Shown piece by piece: positions 13,708 through 20,958 of a stretch of 64,000 nt of DNA. The notes beneath the pieces were generated by a model, which was not told where the DNA came from, ran no database searches, and worked only from the letters and a program-made list of their open reading frames with translations. Position numbers and translations under genes: made by a program. The first letter of the stretch is position 1. Each line of letters opens with the position of its first letter. Source of the stretch: Escherichia phage JM17. Location of the stretch: sequence record PP400779; one strand, 5' to 3'.

Positions 13708-14343
13708 ATGAAAACTACTCCTATTACTATCGCTATTGACGCAATCATAAAACAAGCTTCTTCTTTGGCCGCTATGGCCAAAGTAATTAGTCAAAACCCT
13801 GCTCGTTATAATGCTATTCTAGAAACTCTTCGACGCCCTGGACTTAGTAATTATGAAAGCCGGGTAATTATTACAGGTGTTGGTAAGAATGCTAATATCG
13901 CAACTAAAGCTTCCGAGACATTTGCTTCACTAGGTATTCCTAGCATGTATTTGAACACTGGGCATTATTCTCACGGTGATGCAGGATTCATTGCGCCTAA
14001 TGATGTGTTGATTCATATTAGTCGTTCTGGTAAGACTGAAGAAATGATAGGTGTTGCTAAACATCTTCGTATGATTCGTCCTCAGGTTAAACAGATTCTG
14101 TTACATTGTAACCCAGACATTCCACAAGAATACGAAGCTCTTTTTGATTATACGTTCTGTACTGGCATCGCGGTAGAGGTTGATGAGAATTCTCTGGCTC
14201 CGACTATGTCCACTACATTGTTGTTAGCGCTTATCGATACGTTTGCTATCAACCTTTCGTCTGAACGTGGATTTACCTCTAATGATTTCCTTAAGTTCCA
14301 TCCAGGCGGTGCACTAGGTGCCATGTTACGAGGCGAACAATGA
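13708..14343 (+). CDS. SIS-domain sugar-phosphate isomerase (KdsD/GutQ-like; candidate D-arabinose-5-phosphate isomerase)
   Basis: 211 aa; VIITGVGKN...SLGIPSMYLN...HGD...HISRSGKTEE...FLKFHPGGALGAMLRG parallels KdsD SIS core; no CBS domains. Confidence 0.75.
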   Translation: MKTTPITIAIDAIIKQASSLAAMAKVISQNPARYNAILETLRRPGLSNYESRVIITGVGKNANIATKASETFASLGIPSMYLNTGHYSHGDAGFIAPNDVLIHISRSGKTEEMIGVAKHLRMIRPQVKQILLHCNPDIPQEYEALFDYTFCTGIAVEVDENSLAPTMSTTLLLALIDTFAINLSSERGFTSNDFLKFHPGGALGAMLRGEQ

Positions 14344-14483
14344 AAGCAATAACAATAGGACTTTTACTATTGATGCTTGTCATGACTATCTACTGGAGCT
14401 TAACGGCTCCGGTAATGATTCCAACACTTGTAATTGGATGGATTATGATTGGACTACAAGCAAAGTATGAATGCTTTAACTAG
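14340..14483 (+). CDS. small hydrophobic protein (47 aa, two predicted TM segments)
   Basis: ATG overlaps upstream stop (ATGA); below ORF-track cutoff; lies where T4 has imm. Confidence 0.3.
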   Translation: MKAITIGLLLLMLVMTIYWSLTAPVMIPTLVIGWIMIGLQAKYECFN

Positions 14484-14524
14484 AATAGTGTACAATACTC
14501 CTACTTACCAATGAGGACTTTAAC

Positions 14525-16210
14525 ATGAAAAAAGCTGTTATTCTTGGTGCTGGACTGGCAACTCGTTTGTATCCAATAACGCATCATATTCCTAAGGTGC
14601 TTGTTAACTATAAACAAGATACTATTCTGAGCAATTTGTATACAATTTATTCTGACCTTGGCGCAGATGAAATTATTGTAGTAGTTCATTCAAAATTTGC
14701 TGAAACTGTTCGAGCTTATTGTGAACAAGAAGGGTTCAATGTGACTATTCGTACAGTTGATGAAGCGTATGGTTCTGCTTATGCTCTTGCTAAATTACAC
14801 AAAGATTTAGACGGCCATAATGTAATTGTTAACTGGTGTGATATTATTCCTGATTTTGGTTCATGGTCTTGGAATGTTAACGCAATCTATGTTAAGGGTG
14901 ACGAATGTCGATATAATTTCGACGGTGAAAATATCACTAACGTAGGTTCAACAGGTGGTAATGTTGTAGGAATTTATCAGTTCAAAGACTGGGAATTCTA
15001 TATGGGTTCTACTGATGAGGAAATTCATGAATACTGCAAAGGACGTGATTTCGTAGAATTCCTTTACGGCAGCGCATTCAATAAATCAGAGCTTATGAAT
15101 CTAATTGATTTAGGTGATATGCCTAAACTTGAAAAAGCTCATGAAGTTCGTGAACTTAATCGTAGTTTTAATGCAGTTGAAATTGGTGAAGAAACTGTAA
15201 CTAAATTCGCATTAACCGAACAGGGTCGAGCTCTTCAGAAAGATGAGATTTCGTGGTATCTTAAAGTGAAATCAGATTCAGTTCCTCAGTTAGTTTCTGT
15301 TAATGAAAATAACTTTGAAATGGAACGCATTAAAGGTAAGCCTGCATTTGAATATATTAAATCCAAATCAAGTCTTGCTCGTCCACAAATTGTTGATGCA
15401 ATTTTAGATGCACTGAAATTCAGCACAGACACTTATTTTGTAAGTCCTGAAACTGTTCGTCGTGATTTCACTAAAGAATTCTATACGAAAGTTATTGATC
15501 GTTGTGAAAGCATTCAACCATTGATTGATTCATTTGGTAAAATCACACATGTGAACTACACTAAGATTGGACGTCTGAAGCCAATGCTGAAACAAGCTTT
15601 AGAACACCTCATTCGTTATCATAACCGTTCTCAGGGACAGTACTCTGTTATTCACGGTGACCCGAACTTCAGTAATACTATGATTACTGATAATGGCGAA
15701 GTCAAGTTTATCGACCCTCGTGGATATTTTGGTGAAACCAAGATTTACGGGCCAAAATTGTACGATGAAGCTAAAGTGCTTTACGCTGTTTCAGGTTATG
15801 ATGAATTCAATGCTAATCCGACTTGGGGACAGTTTACTATTGATGAAACAACTTGTAATGTGACTATTAACATCAATCCATTAGTTTACAAATATGGAAA
15901 GATGAGTTCGTTTAACGAGTATCATCATTTGGCAGTGGCAATTATCTGGATTGCATTAGGTGGTTATTTCAAGAATAATCCACTTAAAGCGGTAGCCGCA
16001 TATTATAAAGGTATGGAACTTCTGACTAAGCAATTACGTAACATGGGCCGTGTACTTCAGGACGGCTCTATTAGTTATGACGTAGCAGAACCTGTAACGG
16101 CTACTCTGATTACAAAAAATCCTGGTAAATGGGTACTAACTGATAAAGAAACTGGTGTTTCCTATCGTCCAATCGGTGGCGATATCACTCATCAATGGGA
16201 ACGAATTTGA
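14525..16210 (+). CDS. bifunctional sugar-1-phosphate nucleotidyltransferase / APH-fold sugar kinase
   Basis: 561 aa; N-term AVILGAGLATRLYPIT...PKVLV (NTP-transferase G-loop); C-term VIHGDPNFSN...FIDPRG (Brenner HGDxxxxN and DxxG kinase motifs). Confidence 0.7.
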   Translation: MKKAVILGAGLATRLYPITHHIPKVLVNYKQDTILSNLYTIYSDLGADEIIVVVHSKFAETVRAYCEQEGFNVTIRTVDEAYGSAYALAKLHKDLDGHNVIVNWCDIIPDFGSWSWNVNAIYVKGDECRYNFDGENITNVGSTGGNVVGIYQFKDWEFYMGSTDEEIHEYCKGRDFVEFLYGSAFNKSELMNLIDLGDMPKLEKAHEVRELNRSFNAVEIGEETVTKFALTEQGRALQKDEISWYLKVKSDSVPQLVSVNENNFEMERIKGKPAFEYIKSKSSLARPQIVDAILDALKFSTDTYFVSPETVRRDFTKEFYTKVIDRCESIQPLIDSFGKITHVNYTKIGRLKPMLKQALEHLIRYHNRSQGQYSVIHGDPNFSNTMITDNGEVKFIDPRGYFGETKIYGPKLYDEAKVLYAVSGYDEFNANPTWGQFTIDETTCNVTININPLVYKYGKMSSFNEYHHLAVAIIWIALGGYFKNNPLKAVAAYYKGMELLTKQLRNMGRVLQDGSISYDVAEPVTATLITKNPGKWVLTDKETGVSYRPIGGDITHQWERI

Positions 16211-16956
16211 TACATTATCTCTACAAAACTACTAATCTTATAAACGGTAAAGTTTATTTAGGAATGCACTCGGCTGAAGAAGCCGAGCCTTTAGATTTAT
16301 ATAAAGGTTCTGGTAAATTATATAAAAAGGCTGAAAGGAAATATGGGAAGGAAAATTTTCTTAAAGAAATCATTTCCTACCATAGCTCAAGAGAAGAATT
16401 AAAAATAGCTGAAAAGGCTCTAATAACATTAGACATAGTTAAAGACCCAAATTATTACAATCTTAAAACTGGTGGCGAAGGTGGTTCTGACGGGTTATCC
16501 CAAAGGTCCAAGGATAAAATTTCTAAGGCAAATAAAGGACGTTTAGTTGGTGATAAAAACCCAAGATGGGGTAAAACTTTGTCAGCTGAATCTATAGCTA
16601 GGGGTAAAGAAAAGCACAGGAGGTATGGTAAACCTGCATTACATGGTCTAAAGATTAATGTAGATGGCAAATATTATGAATCCTGTCGGGAAGCGGCTAA
16701 AGATTTAGGTATATCTTCTGCCACGATTCAAAAGAGAGTAAAATCGCCTAAATATCTTAATTATCGGTATCAGGACGAAAGCAAAAATGCTCACAAGTCT
16801 CAAAAATTTGTTAAAATAAACGAAAATTACTATGAATCTCTTAGGATAGCTGAAAAGAAAACGGGTATTCCTAGAAAGCGTATAGCTGATAATATTAAAA
16901 ATTCTATTGAAGGATATTGCTATGAAACCATTACATCTTTGCGTGGACGTCGATGA
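16195..16956 (+). CDS. GIY-YIG homing endonuclease (freestanding, seg-like)
   Basis: 253 aa; HYLYKTTNLINGKVYLGMH = GIY-YIG module; AT-rich codons; overlaps both flanking genes. Confidence 0.7.
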   Translation: MGTNLIHYLYKTTNLINGKVYLGMHSAEEAEPLDLYKGSGKLYKKAERKYGKENFLKEIISYHSSREELKIAEKALITLDIVKDPNYYNLKTGGEGGSDGLSQRSKDKISKANKGRLVGDKNPRWGKTLSAESIARGKEKHRRYGKPALHGLKINVDGKYYESCREAAKDLGISSATIQKRVKSPKYLNYRYQDESKNAHKSQKFVKINENYYESLRIAEKKTGIPRKRIADNIKNSIEGYCYETITSLRGRR

Positions 16957-17296
16957 TTGTATAACAGAGTGGAATAACAATCGTGATTACGTGAACTTCA
17001 AACCAGACGTCGAAATGGTGTCTGCCATTAATGCCCTGTATGATGCAGGGCATACAATAACGCTTTACACTGCTCGAGGTATGAAGTCAGTAGGTCCTGG
17101 TCGTATAGCAATTGACATTCTCCCAAGTCTGATTCAGAACTTGGCAAACATTGGCTTGAAGTACCATAATTTGCTAACACATAAACCAGTATATGATTGG
17201 ATTATCGACGACAAAGCTATGCGTCCTGACGAATTCAAAGCTCTTATGAATAAAGGCGAATTCGAAACATTTAAATCATATAAACCGAATCTATAA
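16922..17296 (+). CDS. HAD-like phosphatase (candidate sugar-phosphate phosphatase)
   Basis: 124 aa from ATG 16922; N-terminal hhhhDxDx motif-like LCVDVDDCIT; small size typical of capless HAD. Confidence 0.45.
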   Translation: MKPLHLCVDVDDCITEWNNNRDYVNFKPDVEMVSAINALYDAGHTITLYTARGMKSVGPGRIAIDILPSLIQNLANIGLKYHNLLTHKPVYDWIIDDKAMRPDEFKALMNKGEFETFKSYKPNL

Positions 17297-17353
17297 TAAT
17301 TTAAGTAAGACCTGCAAAAACCATCGCATCAATTAACGTGAGATGCAAAAAAA

Positions 17354-18514
17354 ATGAATACTTTTAAAATTGGAACGAATTTTGATTTAGCTCTTCTTGA
17401 TAAAATCGTAGAGCTCAATAAAACTTATCCTAATAGCTTGATAAACGAAGTATACGGCTCTACAAGAGAAATGGCTTTTGTAGCAGCCAGACCTGATTTT
17501 AGGCTTCCTGACGTTGACAAAAAGATGTTAGAAGATTACGTTAAACGTTGTAACGAATTAGGTATTTGCTTTAACTATACACTCAACACGATAAATCCTG
17601 GTTCAAAAAGAGAACTAGTTGAGTGGAAGAAGAAAGCTATTCAGGATTATGTTCAGTATCTTTGGTCAATAGGCGTATGGCGTATTACTATCGCTAACCC
17701 TGTTGTTATGGAAATTGTTCGTGAAGTCAATAAAGACATTGAGATTGAAGTTTCAACAATTCTACATGTCGATGCTGTAACTCAAATCAAATACTTGCAT
17801 GACCAGTATAATATCAAAAAGGTCTGCTGTGGAATTCATAAGAACCGTTCAGTTTCTTTCCTGAAGCGTGCAGCAGAGTTTTGCAATAAGAACAATATAA
17901 TATTTGAAGTTCTTGTAAATGAGTTCTGTTCTAATGCCGGTAAAGGGTATACAACACATTGTAGCTATCGTGACTCTTGCTATATTTTCCATAGTACTGA
18001 TGTTACAGCTGATGATGCTAAATCCTTAAACGGATATCCTATGCAGCACTGTATTAAAGCTCGTGATACAGACCCATTTAACTGGTTGAGAACTCGTTTT
18101 GTTCGTCCTCAAGATTTGAAACTTTATAATGATATTGGTATCACTCAATTCAAAGTTTCAGGACGTACAGGTAGCACAGACTACATTTTGAAAGTTCTTG
18201 AAGCATACGCTTCTGAAAAGTTTGAAGGTAATTTGTTAGAACTGTGGAAGCCTTTAGAGACTATTTTCACTCTTGAAAATGAGACCGAGTTTTCACATAC
18301 GGTAAATATTGAAACCTCTTTGTTAGATGGCTTTTTAGAAAAAAGGTGGTTCAGACATCCAGATTTCGATTGTGCTAATGAGATCTGCGGGACGACGTGT
18401 ACATATTGTGAAAGATATTATAAACGTCAGTTATCTAAAAATGGGTTAGCAGAAAACTCTATATCTATTATTGATATAACTAACTCTGATGACGCTTTGA
18501 GGTACCCGGAATGA
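17354..18514 (+). CDS. peptidase-U32-family-like protein (PrtC/RlhA/UbiU-like fold), function unknown
   Basis: 386 aa; IGTNFD...VYGS...CFNYTLNT...IEIEVSTILHV...FEVLVNEFCSNAGKGYTTHCSYRDSCYIFHS resembles U32 core incl. Cys cluster; extra CxxxCxxxCxxC near C-terminus. Confidence 0.45.
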   Translation: MNTFKIGTNFDLALLDKIVELNKTYPNSLINEVYGSTREMAFVAARPDFRLPDVDKKMLEDYVKRCNELGICFNYTLNTINPGSKRELVEWKKKAIQDYVQYLWSIGVWRITIANPVVMEIVREVNKDIEIEVSTILHVDAVTQIKYLHDQYNIKKVCCGIHKNRSVSFLKRAAEFCNKNNIIFEVLVNEFCSNAGKGYTTHCSYRDSCYIFHSTDVTADDAKSLNGYPMQHCIKARDTDPFNWLRTRFVRPQDLKLYNDIGITQFKVSGRTGSTDYILKVLEAYASEKFEGNLLELWKPLETIFTLENETEFSHTVNIETSLLDGFLEKRWFRHPDFDCANEICGTTCTYCERYYKRQLSKNGLAENSISIIDITNSDDALRYPE

Positions 18515-18750
18515 TTTCTAGAAAAACTTTTAATCACCAACTTAATGAAGAGATTTTGACTACGAAACTGAACACTAACGAACAAATTCTTAAAAAGGCC
18601 CTTATGGGCCTGTTTGAAACCAAAGCGGCTAAAGTGATTAAAGGACCTGTTCAATTAGAATATTACGCTGATACATTTCTTCATAGTGTTCTTGGAAGTA
18701 TCGATGCTGAAGCTTTACGTTATATCAACATTGCCAAGAAATTCAAATAA
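18511..18750 (+). CDS. hypothetical protein (79 aa)
   Basis: ORF overlapping upstream stop; contains internal hairpin aggccc-ttat-gggcct (18597-18612). Confidence 0.3.
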   Translation: MISRKTFNHQLNEEILTTKLNTNEQILKKALMGLFETKAAKVIKGPVQLEYYADTFLHSVLGSIDAEALRYINIAKKFK

Positions 18751-18792
18751 GCTTTACGAATTGAGTATATAATAAATTGTATTGAGGTAAAC

Positions 18793-19509
18793 ATGGGAAA
18801 ACATAACACAATGAAATATATCAAAGCCGCAGATTTTCAAACCGCATTTAAAGCAGTCAATCGTGAAATTTTAGAAAACCCGGAATTCGTAACTGATTCT
18901 CGTATTGGACGTTGTAATGAAATTGGGTCTATGACAGTAGTTGTTGACACTCCATCATCATTCAAAATGACTGACCCACGTATTAACCGCATCTCTTATG
19001 AATATGCCGAAGACTTCTGGAAGTTTATGATTTCTGGTGGTACCAACGCAGAAGAAGCGTTTAAGGCATATCCTAATGTCGCTAAATTTATTTCTAAACC
19101 AAAATCAGATGTTTTGCCGGCGAACTTCAATACTTTCTATGGTCCTCGCATTGCGGCCCAATTACCAGCTCTTCTAAAAGAACTTAAAGAGAAGCCTAAC
19201 TCTCGAAGAGTTGTGTTCCAAATTCTAGAAAGTTCTGATCAGGCTTTGCTTGATTCGGATGAAACGCTTGAATATCCATGTACTGACTCAGTGACTTATT
19301 ATATTCGTGATGGTAAGCTTTATACCCACTGTCATATGCGTTCTCAGAACTGTGCTGTTGTTATGCAGTTGGATTTTTATCTCCAAGGAAAATTACTTCA
19401 TTATATCGCTAACGAATGCGGTGTAGAAGTTGGTGATTATACTCATACCATGGTAAGTGCCCATGTGTTTGAACGTGATTTTGATTATGTTAAAGGATTC
19501 CTTGACTAA
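18793..19509 (+). CDS. 42: dCMP hydroxymethylase gp42 (thymidylate-synthase fold)
   Basis: 238 aa; TS-family core (NSRRVVFQI, PCTDSVTYYIRDGKLY..MRSQN....LD...GV.VGDY) with Asp at the base-specificity position; synteny 43..42..uvsX. Confidence 0.75.
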   Translation: MGKHNTMKYIKAADFQTAFKAVNREILENPEFVTDSRIGRCNEIGSMTVVVDTPSSFKMTDPRINRISYEYAEDFWKFMISGGTNAEEAFKAYPNVAKFISKPKSDVLPANFNTFYGPRIAAQLPALLKELKEKPNSRRVVFQILESSDQALLDSDETLEYPCTDSVTYYIRDGKLYTHCHMRSQNCAVVMQLDFYLQGKLLHYIANECGVEVGDYTHTMVSAHVFERDFDYVKGFLD

Positions 19510-20408
19510 TGGCTATTTTCCGCGTACCAATCTTGAGTATGCGGTCTTATGAAACTGGACAGTATGCTATCCTTAAGGATGGCAACTTCCAACTTCATTT
19601 GCACCGTGCTAATCCGGGTGATGTGATTACATATCCACGTAATGCATCTGATATTAAAGAATGCGAACGTCTTTTCCCAGAATTTAAGTTTGTTCCATTA
19701 TGGTATAAAGATAACGCTTATAACACTCGTAAATATTTCTGGTCTGAAAATGAATTTGTGGTTGATTCATTAATTGCTTATTATGATTGCGATTTTCTAA
19801 TCACAGATATAACTGGATATGACGGCGCTTTTGATGTAGAATTCAATTTCAATATCACTGCAGACCCTAATAAACCACGTTTTTATATTGACGAATTCTT
19901 AAAAACCGACATGTTGTCGGTTAATCGTTCAATCCAAACAACTGTGTTGAATGAACGTCAAAAAGAAGTGCTGGTTAACGCAGGTGCAGATGGTAATAAG
20001 ATTATCGTAACGCAGAAAGTTATACGTCCTTCCATCATGCAGCGTCTTGTAGGTGATTTGGCTCCTATTTATCTAGATGGTATTTTTCATCCATTTCGAA
20101 TTAGTGACCCGTGCTATCGTTTTGAACAAGTGGTTGAATGTGCAATTCAATTAGGTCAACCGCTTTATATAACCGATCCAAATAATAGCTTTGACAGAAA
20201 TAAGTATCCTGAAGAAGCGTTGATTCGAATTTTTAAACCAACTAAAACTGAGTACTATCAAATTCTTAAAGGACGTCCGAAGATTCAATATTTCGAAAAT
20301 CCTGAAGAAGTATTTCATCCAGGTCTTGGTGAGTTCATCTACTTTAATGCTTTAATTTCTTCACCGTATAATATACCTAAATATGAAGATGTCGTAATCG
20401 AGGAATAA
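19509..20408 (+). CDS. hypothetical protein in the T4 beta-gt slot (candidate DNA-modification transferase)
   Basis: 299 aa; start overlaps gene 42 stop (TAATG); not recognisable as T4 beta-glucosyltransferase. Confidence 0.4.
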   Translation: MAIFRVPILSMRSYETGQYAILKDGNFQLHLHRANPGDVITYPRNASDIKECERLFPEFKFVPLWYKDNAYNTRKYFWSENEFVVDSLIAYYDCDFLITDITGYDGAFDVEFNFNITADPNKPRFYIDEFLKTDMLSVNRSIQTTVLNERQKEVLVNAGADGNKIIVTQKVIRPSIMQRLVGDLAPIYLDGIFHPFRISDPCYRFEQVVECAIQLGQPLYITDPNNSFDRNKYPEEALIRIFKPTKTEYYQILKGRPKIQYFENPEEVFHPGLGEFIYFNALISSPYNIPKYEDVVIEE

Positions 20409-20409
20409 A

Positions 20410-20958
20410 ATGGCTAAAATTATTTTAGTAGATGGCCCGGATAATGCTGGTAAAACAACTTTCATTAATGACATAATGGAAATTAGTGAAAGATATGTAA
20501 AAATTGATTTCCCTAAACGAACAGTTGATGGACGTTTCGATGTTAAGTCTCGAAATGAAGTTGGCTGTTTTGAAACGATGTTGAATTATTTAGACCCTAC
20601 TAAGATTTATCTGTTAGACCGTGGATATATTAGTAACTGGGTTTACGGACGTATTCGACAAGATGCGGACTCGGTTCTTGACGTTTATGAACAGGATTAT
20701 ATTCGTCTTTGCCAAAACCATGATGTGTTCACAATTATTTTAACACGTAACGAAATGACTGAAAGTTTTGAAGATGACCTTATTACTTTGTCTTCATTAG
20801 GTTTTAATACAGTCATTTCACATTTTGAAGAGTTTGCAATTCATAACAAAATCCAAACGTATCAATTACTTAATCATGATGGTGCTAACAAAGTTATAGG
20901 ATTTAATGCAAGCGAACGTAATGATTTGATTACAGAAATCATCAAATGGGCTCGTTAA
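20410..20958 (+). CDS. P-loop kinase, thymidylate-kinase-like
   Basis: 182 aa; Walker A VDGPDNAGKTT and DRGYISNWVYG (DR-Y/F motif of dNMP kinases). Confidence 0.55.
   Translation: MAKIILVDGPDNAGKTTFINDIMEISERYVKIDFPKRTVDGRFDVKSRNEVGCFETMLNYLDPTKIYLLDRGYISNWVYGRIRQDADSVLDVYEQDYIRLCQNHDVFTIILTRNEMTESFEDDLITLSSLGFNTVISHFEEFAIHNKIQTYQLLNHDGANKVIGFNASERNDLITEIIKWAR

Follow-up and report, generated by a model that had tools for sequence, protein, structure and literature searches.

A nucleotidyltransferase–kinase fusion of Escherichia phage JM17 as the Mosigvirus ortholog of AfhE, with a probable role in UDP-D-arabinofuranose synthesis

The window analysed here, a stretch of 64,000 nucleotides of DNA from Escherichia phage JM17 (sequence record PP400779), was examined around a single open reading frame (ORF) of 561 amino acids (aa) at positions 14525-16210. 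The original prediction, made from the letters of the sequence, had read this ORF as a nucleotidyltransferase joined to an APH-fold kinase and as a salvage enzyme that activates a free sugar. The JM17 region carries the T4-type replication genes gp45, gp44, gp62, regA, gp43, uvsX and gp41; a 7.4-kb part of the window aligns at 98.4% identity with Escherichia phage NRG-P0074, a Mosigvirus, and in 150 phage records the match extends over 80% or more of this part. The window is that of a Mosigvirus, an RB69-like T4-type phage. The ORF is divided as follows.

14525..16210, + strand: AfhE-type bifunctional enzyme (= RB69 ORF53_52c / gp52:53), 561 aa, ATG start; function taken from the literature
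14525..15139, + strand: N-terminal sugar-1-phosphate nucleotidyltransferase domain, aa 1-205
15170..16045, + strand: C-terminal choline-kinase/APH-fold kinase domain, aa 216-507
16046..16207, + strand: C-terminal 54-aa tail, aa 508-561, short beta strands, predicted local distance difference test (pLDDT) 84-91

Pfam analysis of the JM17 ORF gave an above-threshold match to PF00483 at aa 3-99 (E=8.5e-10), while the kinase domain had no above-threshold match, only sub-threshold hints at aa 344-409; its detection needed a family-wide Pfam scan and a structure model. Across 44 family members PF00483 was found in 38 and PF01636 (APH) in 18. An AlphaFold2 model built from the alignment of the 44 homologues (pLDDT 93.7; predicted template modelling score, pTM, 0.91) consists of a domain at aa 1-205, a short linker of lower confidence, a kinase domain at aa 216-507 and the 54-residue tail. 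This tail is kept in the homologues from T4-like phages; most distant homologues are without it and match to about aa 500-505. Motifs, Pfam and the model agree with one another, and the fusion of a sugar-1-phosphate nucleotidyltransferase to an APH/choline-kinase-fold kinase in one polypeptide, as first proposed, is confirmed.

The three motifs quoted in the original prediction are all present, and their core residues are invariant. In the N-terminal domain, AVILGAGLATRLYPIT occupies aa 4-19 and the G-x-G-x-x-R-L loop aa 8-15, followed by K24, D106 and an IDLGD motif at aa 194-198. In the kinase domain, HGDPNFSN (aa 377-384) supplies the Brenner motif H377-G-D379-x4-N384, and IDPRG (aa 396-400) the metal-binding motif I-D397-P-R-G; K227 and E241 are our candidates for the ATP-binding lysine and the helix-C glutamate, respectively. 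In the alignment of the 44 homologues, whose identity reaches down to 28%, the nucleotidyltransferase residues G10, R14 and K24 and the kinase residues G378, D379, S383, N384, I396, D397, P398, R399 and G400 were invariant. The catalytic residues of both domains are thus kept.

Structural comparison of the kinase domain returned (scores in brackets) choline kinase 6yxs (15.4) and 3dxq (15.1), fructosamine-3-kinase 3f7w (14.7), glucosamine kinase 6hwj (14.6), maltokinase and APH(2'') (14.5), and, lower, LicA and methylthioribose kinase (14.0). The top structural match of the N-terminal domain was the cytidylyltransferase LicC, and Foldseek was in agreement. The bilobal eukaryotic-like fold and the Brenner motif place the kinase in the APH/choline kinase superfamily (Pfam APH clan), at superfamily level only. 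Searching the PDB by sequence gave no experimental structure of either the full-length protein or its kinase half. These data also bear on whether the ORF activates sugars at all. It might instead be a glycosyltransferase or phosphotransferase acting on DNA or nucleotides, as has been suggested for the homologue TH1_060 of phage Thanatos, or a protein resembling antibiotic or protein kinases. The conserved-domain annotation of the N-terminal domain reads 'glycosyltransferase family A', and the C-terminal domain weakly matches RIO1, EcKL and APH in Pfam. The APH and choline-kinase matches lie at fold level only, at 10-16% identity, and do not place the protein with antibiotic or protein kinases of unrelated function. 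A glycosyltransferase role of the N-terminal domain was rejected, and we regard a protein that does not activate sugars as extremely unlikely.

The original prediction had likened the fusion to fucokinase/GDP-fucose pyrophosphorylase (FKP) and to trypanosomatid arabinokinase/pyrophosphorylase (AFKP). With these enzymes the ORF shares a kinase and a pyrophosphorylase in one chain and a route to the nucleoside diphosphate (NDP)-sugar through the sugar-1-phosphate. FKP and the trypanosomatid enzymes, however, use GHMP kinases, and neither a GHMP nor a Fucokinase Pfam match was found in the ORF or its 44 relatives, so the architecture named is replaced by a choline-kinase/APH fold and membership in FKP or AFKP is rejected. 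Better comparisons at fold level are AmgK-MurU, of N-acetylmuramic acid/N-acetylglucosamine recycling, and LicA-LicC, of phosphocholine activation. Both are true salvage systems made of separate polypeptides that take free, unphosphorylated substrates, whereas the phage protein is fused, would take a sugar 5-phosphate and would have a phosphatase step between its two reactions; identity to these proteins is 10-20%.

To RB69 the JM17 gene is about 97% identical at the DNA level, apart from a single-base indel. The RB69 reference NC_004928 (8095-9781) has one extra C, following ORF position 654 in the window, which splits the gene into RB69p053 and RB69p052 and still stands in the RefSeq record. 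Resequencing of RB69 revealed the extra C to be erroneous and the gene product to be a single protein of 561 residues, for which a role in UDP-arabinose synthesis was proposed (Thomas et al., 2018; PMC6024577). The glycosyltransferase of the RB69 RefSeq record is likewise divided, into p046 and p047. The JM17 protein is identical at 560 of 561 residues to that of phage APCEc01 and 100% identical to the representative of a 90%-identity cluster with 230 member sequences. AfhE at least 99% identical to it occurs in 142 phage records, and homologues of the nucleotidyltransferase–kinase in 376. Among 1.84 billion representatives, 135 clusters (protein clusters at 50% identity) were matched at E<=1e-30, most of them across both domains in one stretch; the fusion is far beyond chance. 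The ORF matches PHROG 4098 over aa 1-561 (E=3.7e-295) and is 54-57% identical to TH1_060 and to homologues from Acinetobacter phages. With full-length orthology, both catalytic domains and the gene context, it belongs to the AfhE / RB69 gp52:53 family (PHROG 4098). Public annotations of the gene include 'hypothetical protein', 'bifunctional protein GlmU', 'dCMP deaminase' and 'mannose-1-phosphate guanyltransferase'.

The genes flanking afhE between DNA polymerase and uvsX in the JM17 window are, in order:

13708..14343, + strand: SIS-domain D-arabinose-5-phosphate isomerase (RB69 gp55); Pfam SIS E=4.8e-10
14340..14483, + strand: 47-aa hydrophobic ORF, MKAITIGLLLLMLVMTIYWSLTAPVMIPTLVIGWIMIGLQAKYECFN, between the isomerase and afhE
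16195..16956, + strand: GIY-YIG/Seg-like homing endonuclease; Pfam I-TevI_DNA-bd, NUMOD1, NUMOD3, SegE_GIY-YIG
16922..17296, + strand: small HAD phosphatase (AfhF / RB69 gp51); TIGR01689 EcbF-BcbF capsule phosphatase E=2e-13
17354..18514, + strand: U32 'peptidase'-family protein (RB69 gp50); Pfam Peptidase_U32 E=7e-11
18511..18750, + strand: 79-aa ORF, Mosigvirus only, in the slot of the chorismate mutase of related phages
18793..19509, + strand: thymidylate-synthase homologue, flavin/O2-dependent 5-hydroxy-dCMP synthase (RB69 gp48); Pfam Thymidylat_synt E=2e-15
19509..20408, + strand: putative first DNA arabinosyltransferase (RB69 gp46:47); PHROG 3891
20410..20958, + strand: thymidylate-kinase-like nucleotide kinase (RB69 gp45); PHROG 761 and Table 1 of Lee et al. 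(2026)

Arabinose-5-phosphate isomerase, HAD phosphatase, ThyA-like synthase and glycosyltransferase thus all lie within 13708-20408. The isomerase matched KpsF/GutQ (E=5e-32) and KdsD (E=2e-30), both below the curated cut-offs, and PDB entries 3etn (E=7e-25) and 2xhz. The HAD phosphatase differed from PDB entry 9iqw, 'Capsule biosynthesis protein', at 3 of 121 aligned residues (E=7e-81) and is related to 1xpj; the thymidylate-synthase homologue was about 98% identical to 9iqc, 9ir2 and 9iqu. The role of RB69 gp46:47 as an arabinosyltransferase, for which UDP-arabinofuranose would be the donor, was assigned, as putative, from structural matches (Lee et al., 2026; PMC13326640). The 47-aa ORF is conserved and strongly hydrophobic; it is annotated as hypothetical in NRG-P0074, APCEc01 and Serratia phage LC53, where a note in LC53 adds 'transmembrane segment(s)'.

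The homing endonuclease is carried by an insertion of 724 bp (16207-16930) placed precisely at the junction of afhE and afhF; the ATG of the endonuclease falls within the final afhE codons. RB69 and APCEc01 are without the insertion, and in them the stop codon of afhE overlaps the start of afhF. Most of the listed close relatives are without it as well; among the phages listed, only NRG-P0074, BEU50 and a20 match through in one piece. The insertion exchanges the AfhF N-terminus MHRVENMLNLCF for MKPLHLCV and leaves the DVDD motif unaffected. The homing endonuclease is outside the arabinose pathway. In the 561-aa two-domain protein, the neighbourhood and the phage genus, JM17 agrees with HY126 AfhE / RB69 gp52:53; only the homing endonuclease between afhE and afhF and the rewritten AfhF start differ.

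Phage HY126 enters through the PDB matches. The codes 9iqw, 9iqc, 9ir2 and 9iqu run consecutively, and the entries fit the work of He et al. on HY126 as described by Lee et al.; 9iqw and 9iqc/9iqu seem to be the structures of HY126 proteins from that work. From this we infer that HY126 and JM17 are closely related. The HY126 hydroxylase has a crystal structure (He et al., 2026, relayed in PMC13326640). According to the same account, HY126 AfhE converts arabinose-5-phosphate to the 1,5-bisphosphate and is also a UDP-D-arabinose pyrophosphorylase, and AfhF is a Mg-dependent phosphatase that converts arabinose-1,5-bisphosphate to arabinose-1-phosphate (He et al., relayed in PMC13326640). RB69 DNA contains mono- and di-arabinosylated 5-hydroxycytosine, not hydroxymethylcytosine, and RB69 gp55, gp52:53 and gp51 were assigned to NDP-arabinofuranose synthesis (Lee et al., 2026; PMC13326640). 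In vitro, tri-arabinosylation by gp76 and gp77 of phage DLP3 works with UDP-arabinofuranose (UDP-Araf) and not with UDP-arabinopyranose (UDP-Arap), and the best AlphaFold-database match of the DLP3 phosphatase homologue is GmhB, a bisphosphate phosphatase (PMC13326640). TH1_060, 54% identical to AfhE, is essential for propagation of phage Thanatos and formed no NDP-xylose from xylose-1-phosphate with any of five NTPs (2025 study). The gene is therefore already known: a function was proposed in 2018, relatives were studied in 2025, and it was characterised in 2026 in the seemingly near-identical phage HY126.

From this evidence we consider it very likely that the JM17 ORF is the Mosigvirus ortholog of AfhE and serves de novo synthesis of UDP-D-arabinofuranose, via arabinose-1,5-bisphosphate, for the arabinosylation of 5-hydroxycytosine in DNA. 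Our own evidence for this is the ORF, its domains and motifs, the gene context and the orthology to RB69 gp52:53; the second to fourth of the following steps are relayed for HY126 AfhE and AfhF. The adjacent SIS isomerase would convert host ribulose-5-phosphate to D-arabinose-5-phosphate, and the AfhE kinase domain, with ATP, would phosphorylate the anomeric C1 hydroxyl to give arabinofuranose-1,5-bisphosphate. The HAD phosphatase AfhF would take off the 5-phosphate, and the AfhE nucleotidyltransferase domain would join the resulting arabinofuranose-1-phosphate to UTP, yielding UDP-Araf and pyrophosphate. GT-B glycosyltransferases would finally move the arabinose onto 5-hydroxycytosine. The activation of a sugar by a phage through the sugar-1-phosphate, without a mutase, is supported as originally proposed, and the naming of arabinose among the candidate sugars was a correct guess.

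The same protein architecture could in principle handle another pentose, such as ribose, xylose or a deoxypentose, or another carrier, CDP, GDP or dTDP. That LicC, the best structural match of the N-terminal half, is a cytidylyltransferase would suit such a view, base specificity being unreadable from the motifs, and the authors of the Thanatos study weighed xylose or a deoxypentose. Mosigvirus DNA bears arabinose, though, the isomerase next to AfhE is of the KdsD/GutQ type, the DLP3 transferases accept UDP-Araf, AfhE is reported to be a UDP-D-arabinose pyrophosphorylase and the Thanatos homologue was inactive on xylose-1-phosphate; we therefore rate a different sugar or carrier as very unlikely. 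The view that the nucleotide was not predictable was fair as far as the sequence goes, but does not hold against the literature, in which it is now reported to be UDP.

The order of the kinase and phosphatase steps required a separate assessment. In the alternative order, the HAD phosphatase would first free D-arabinose from arabinose-5-phosphate, or free arabinose would be scavenged, and a kinase of the AmgK/NahK type would then phosphorylate the anomeric carbon before uridylylation. Known APH-fold anomeric sugar kinases use unphosphorylated sugars, as do the nearest fold matches found here (choline, glucosamine and fructosamine kinases), and gene content alone cannot separate the two orders. 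On the other hand, D-arabinose in its free form exists mainly as the pyranose, yet the donor that was active in vitro is in the furanose form; no pool of the free sugar is expected in E. coli; and a phosphatase and an isomerase, strictly co-occurring, would be superfluous to a pure salvage enzyme. A pentose phosphorylated at C5 closes only as a furanose, so phosphorylation of C1 before removal of the 5-phosphate fixes the furanose ring. Such a lock, which is our own proposal, would account for the synthesis of a furanosyl nucleotide sugar with neither a pyranose-furanose mutase nor a phosphopentomutase. We favour the bisphosphate route because of the activity reported for AfhE, the GmhB match of the DLP3 phosphatase and the furanose-ring argument, and consider an order that begins with free arabinose improbable. 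Salvage of a free sugar, as claimed in the original prediction, conflicts with the flanking arabinose-5-phosphate isomerase and HAD phosphatase and with the action of HY126 AfhE on arabinose-5-phosphate (PMC13326640); the input would accordingly be an intermediate of the pentose phosphate pathway, supplied de novo.

Several points weigh against this reading of the JM17 ORF as AfhE in UDP-D-arabinofuranose synthesis via the bisphosphate. The kinase-then-phosphatase order rests on a second-hand account: the text of Lee et al., citing He et al., gives arabinose-5-phosphate kinase activity and a bisphosphate intermediate, and Table 1 of the same paper annotates the free-arabinose order, 'dephosphorylates Araf5p to Ara' and 'phosphorylates Ara to Araf1p' (PMC13326640). 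Activities are reported for HY126 AfhE and none for the JM17 protein or RB69 gp52:53, and the probable near-identity of HY126 AfhE to the JM17 ORF is drawn from neighbouring genes that match 9iqw and 9iqc, not from a direct alignment of AfhE. A paper of June 2026 still calls the Mosigvirus arabinose precursor unclear, and specificity for UTP is not provable from sequence alone.

The distribution of the genes was compared across phage records. The nucleotidyltransferase–kinase was found in 376 records and the HAD phosphatase in 380, with nearly the same breakdown by genus. The SIS isomerase was found in 275; Klebsiella phages and about 40 Escherichia phages have the nucleotidyltransferase–kinase and the phosphatase without it. 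The hosts of these isomerase-less phages presumably make arabinose-5-phosphate through KdsD, for synthesis of 3-deoxy-D-manno-octulosonic acid (Kdo), and the phages presumably draw on it. Dhakavirus IME08, which may belong to the isomerase-less phages, has in the isomerase slot a 166-aa ORF with no Pfam match. On a 350-kb jumbo-phage contig, a 35%-identical homologue stands together with SIS, glycosyltransferase family 2 (GT2), HAD and ThyA homologue genes. By the Rosetta-stone argument, single polypeptides that combine HAD, SIS and nucleotidyltransferase–kinase parts indicate a single pathway for these activities, with a sugar phosphate as its starting point.

At pathway level the better comparison is the ADP-/GDP-heptose pathway, in which a SIS isomerase (GmhA), an anomeric kinase with a sugar phosphate as substrate (HldE or HddA), a HAD bisphosphate phosphatase (GmhB) and a transferase (HldE-C or HddC) mirror the arabinose scheme; HldE is also a kinase-transferase fusion, as is AfhE. 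The heptose pathway delivers heptose to lipopolysaccharide, whereas the AfhE pathway would deliver a pentose to DNA. The kinase folds differ from that of AfhE, being PfkB in HldE and GHMP in HddA, and the transferase of HldE belongs to the cytidylyltransferase-like class. Pfam gave no PfkB, GHMP or CTP_transf_like match in AfhE or the 44 relatives. Membership in the HldE type, which has a PfkB/ribokinase-fold kinase and a PF01467 transferase, was rejected, and the likeness is a convergence of pathway logic, not family membership.

As supplier of the sugar donor of arabinosyl-5-hydroxycytosine, AfhE would stand behind a modification that lets RB69-like phages evade restriction enzymes and influences how sensitive they are to type IV restriction and further defence systems, which gives it relevance for engineering phages and for phage therapy. 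For AfhE itself, the present analysis corrects the annotation of a misannotated gene and the salvage reading, and adds nothing to the literature of 2018-2026. What may be new are the single-polypeptide versions in giant viruses and the pairing of U32 and chorismate mutase genes beside an O2-dependent hydroxylase.

The U32 gene occurs in 221 phage records and stays at or above 80% identity throughout, while AfhE in the same phages falls to 42-73%. The host genera listed for U32 are all facultative anaerobes, and Acinetobacter, with 57 phage records of AfhE and AfhF, is not among the genera listed. In Serratia phage LC53 (L014:4992-6502), the gene after U32 encodes a genuine chorismate mutase (PF01817 CM_2, E=1.7e-11). 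It was matched in 54 phage records, and most of the matches listed overlap or adjoin a gene annotated as thymidylate synthase. The 79-aa ORF in the corresponding slot of JM17 (18511-18750) gave no Pfam match and no BLASTP similarity to the LC53 chorismate mutase, and all of its homologues found are at least 80% identical; its identity as a chorismate mutase is neither supported nor excluded.

Lee et al. (2026; PMC13326640) list the U32 protein only as a 'sugar or heterocycle reductase'. The U32 proteins RlhA, TrhP and UbiU/V are O2-independent, prephenate-dependent Fe-S hydroxylases; RlhA makes the 5-hydroxycytidine of 23S rRNA, and prephenate is what chorismate mutase produces (PMC5727448, PMC6599085, PMC10990095). 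The ThyA-like 5-hydroxy-dCMP synthase, in turn, requires O2 (PMC13326640). Given prephenate-dependent U32 hydroxylases and an O2-requiring synthase, we suspect that the phage U32 protein, with chorismate mutase where present, is a candidate anaerobic route to 5-hydroxycytosine that would back up the ThyA-like synthase.

Outside these phages, distant homologues (about 30-35% identical) occurred as single polypeptides of 890-955 aa with HAD and nucleotidyltransferase–kinase parts on giant-virus-like contigs; P0106 is listed among the distant homologues alongside them. P0084 (L002:8001-10781), P0091 and P0092 carry HAD, SIS, nucleotidyltransferase and kinase in one chain; for the fusion P0118 (L010:8001-10679) a SIS match was not found. 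A 786-aa variant ends in a C-terminal cupin domain, and one fusion came from a transcriptome of Ceratiomyxa fruticulosa. Over giant viruses (Nucleocytoviricota) and Ceratiomyxa, fusion sizes are 890-1010 aa. On one contig the fusion gene neighbours MutS7-HNH and RNA polymerase Rpb2; on another its neighbours are genes for an NDP-sugar epimerase/dehydratase, a GT2 protein and a UDP-GlcNAc 2-epimerase.

We tentatively propose, as a possibility with somewhat less than even prospects, that the nucleotidyltransferase–kinase forms the heart of a general de novo route, so far hardly explored, which leads to NDP-D-arabinofuranose or a related pentofuranose and is not confined to phage DNA modification. 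If so, the giant-virus fusion beside epimerase and GT2 genes would point to arabinofuranosylated viral glycans, not to modified DNA. The fusions and their contexts suggest that eukaryotic viruses make NDP-arabinofuranose, or a sugar related to it, for their glycans. In the literature collection searched, no paper tied giant viruses to an NDP-arabinofuranose pathway.

Homologues were also found in phages with other gene contexts. That of Vibrio phage D481, of 435 aa, lies among radical-SAM, QueC and NAMPT genes. Enterococcus phage TJE4 (L008:4385-8818), a siphophage of a Gram-positive host, encodes a 544-aa nucleotidyltransferase–kinase, 24.6% identical, flanked on one side by a thymidylate-synthase homologue and a dUTPase and on the other by a putative glycosyltransferase; no SIS or HAD gene was seen near it. 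Judged by these neighbours, the TJE4 locus may encode a related base-glycosylation system with a different sugar supply.

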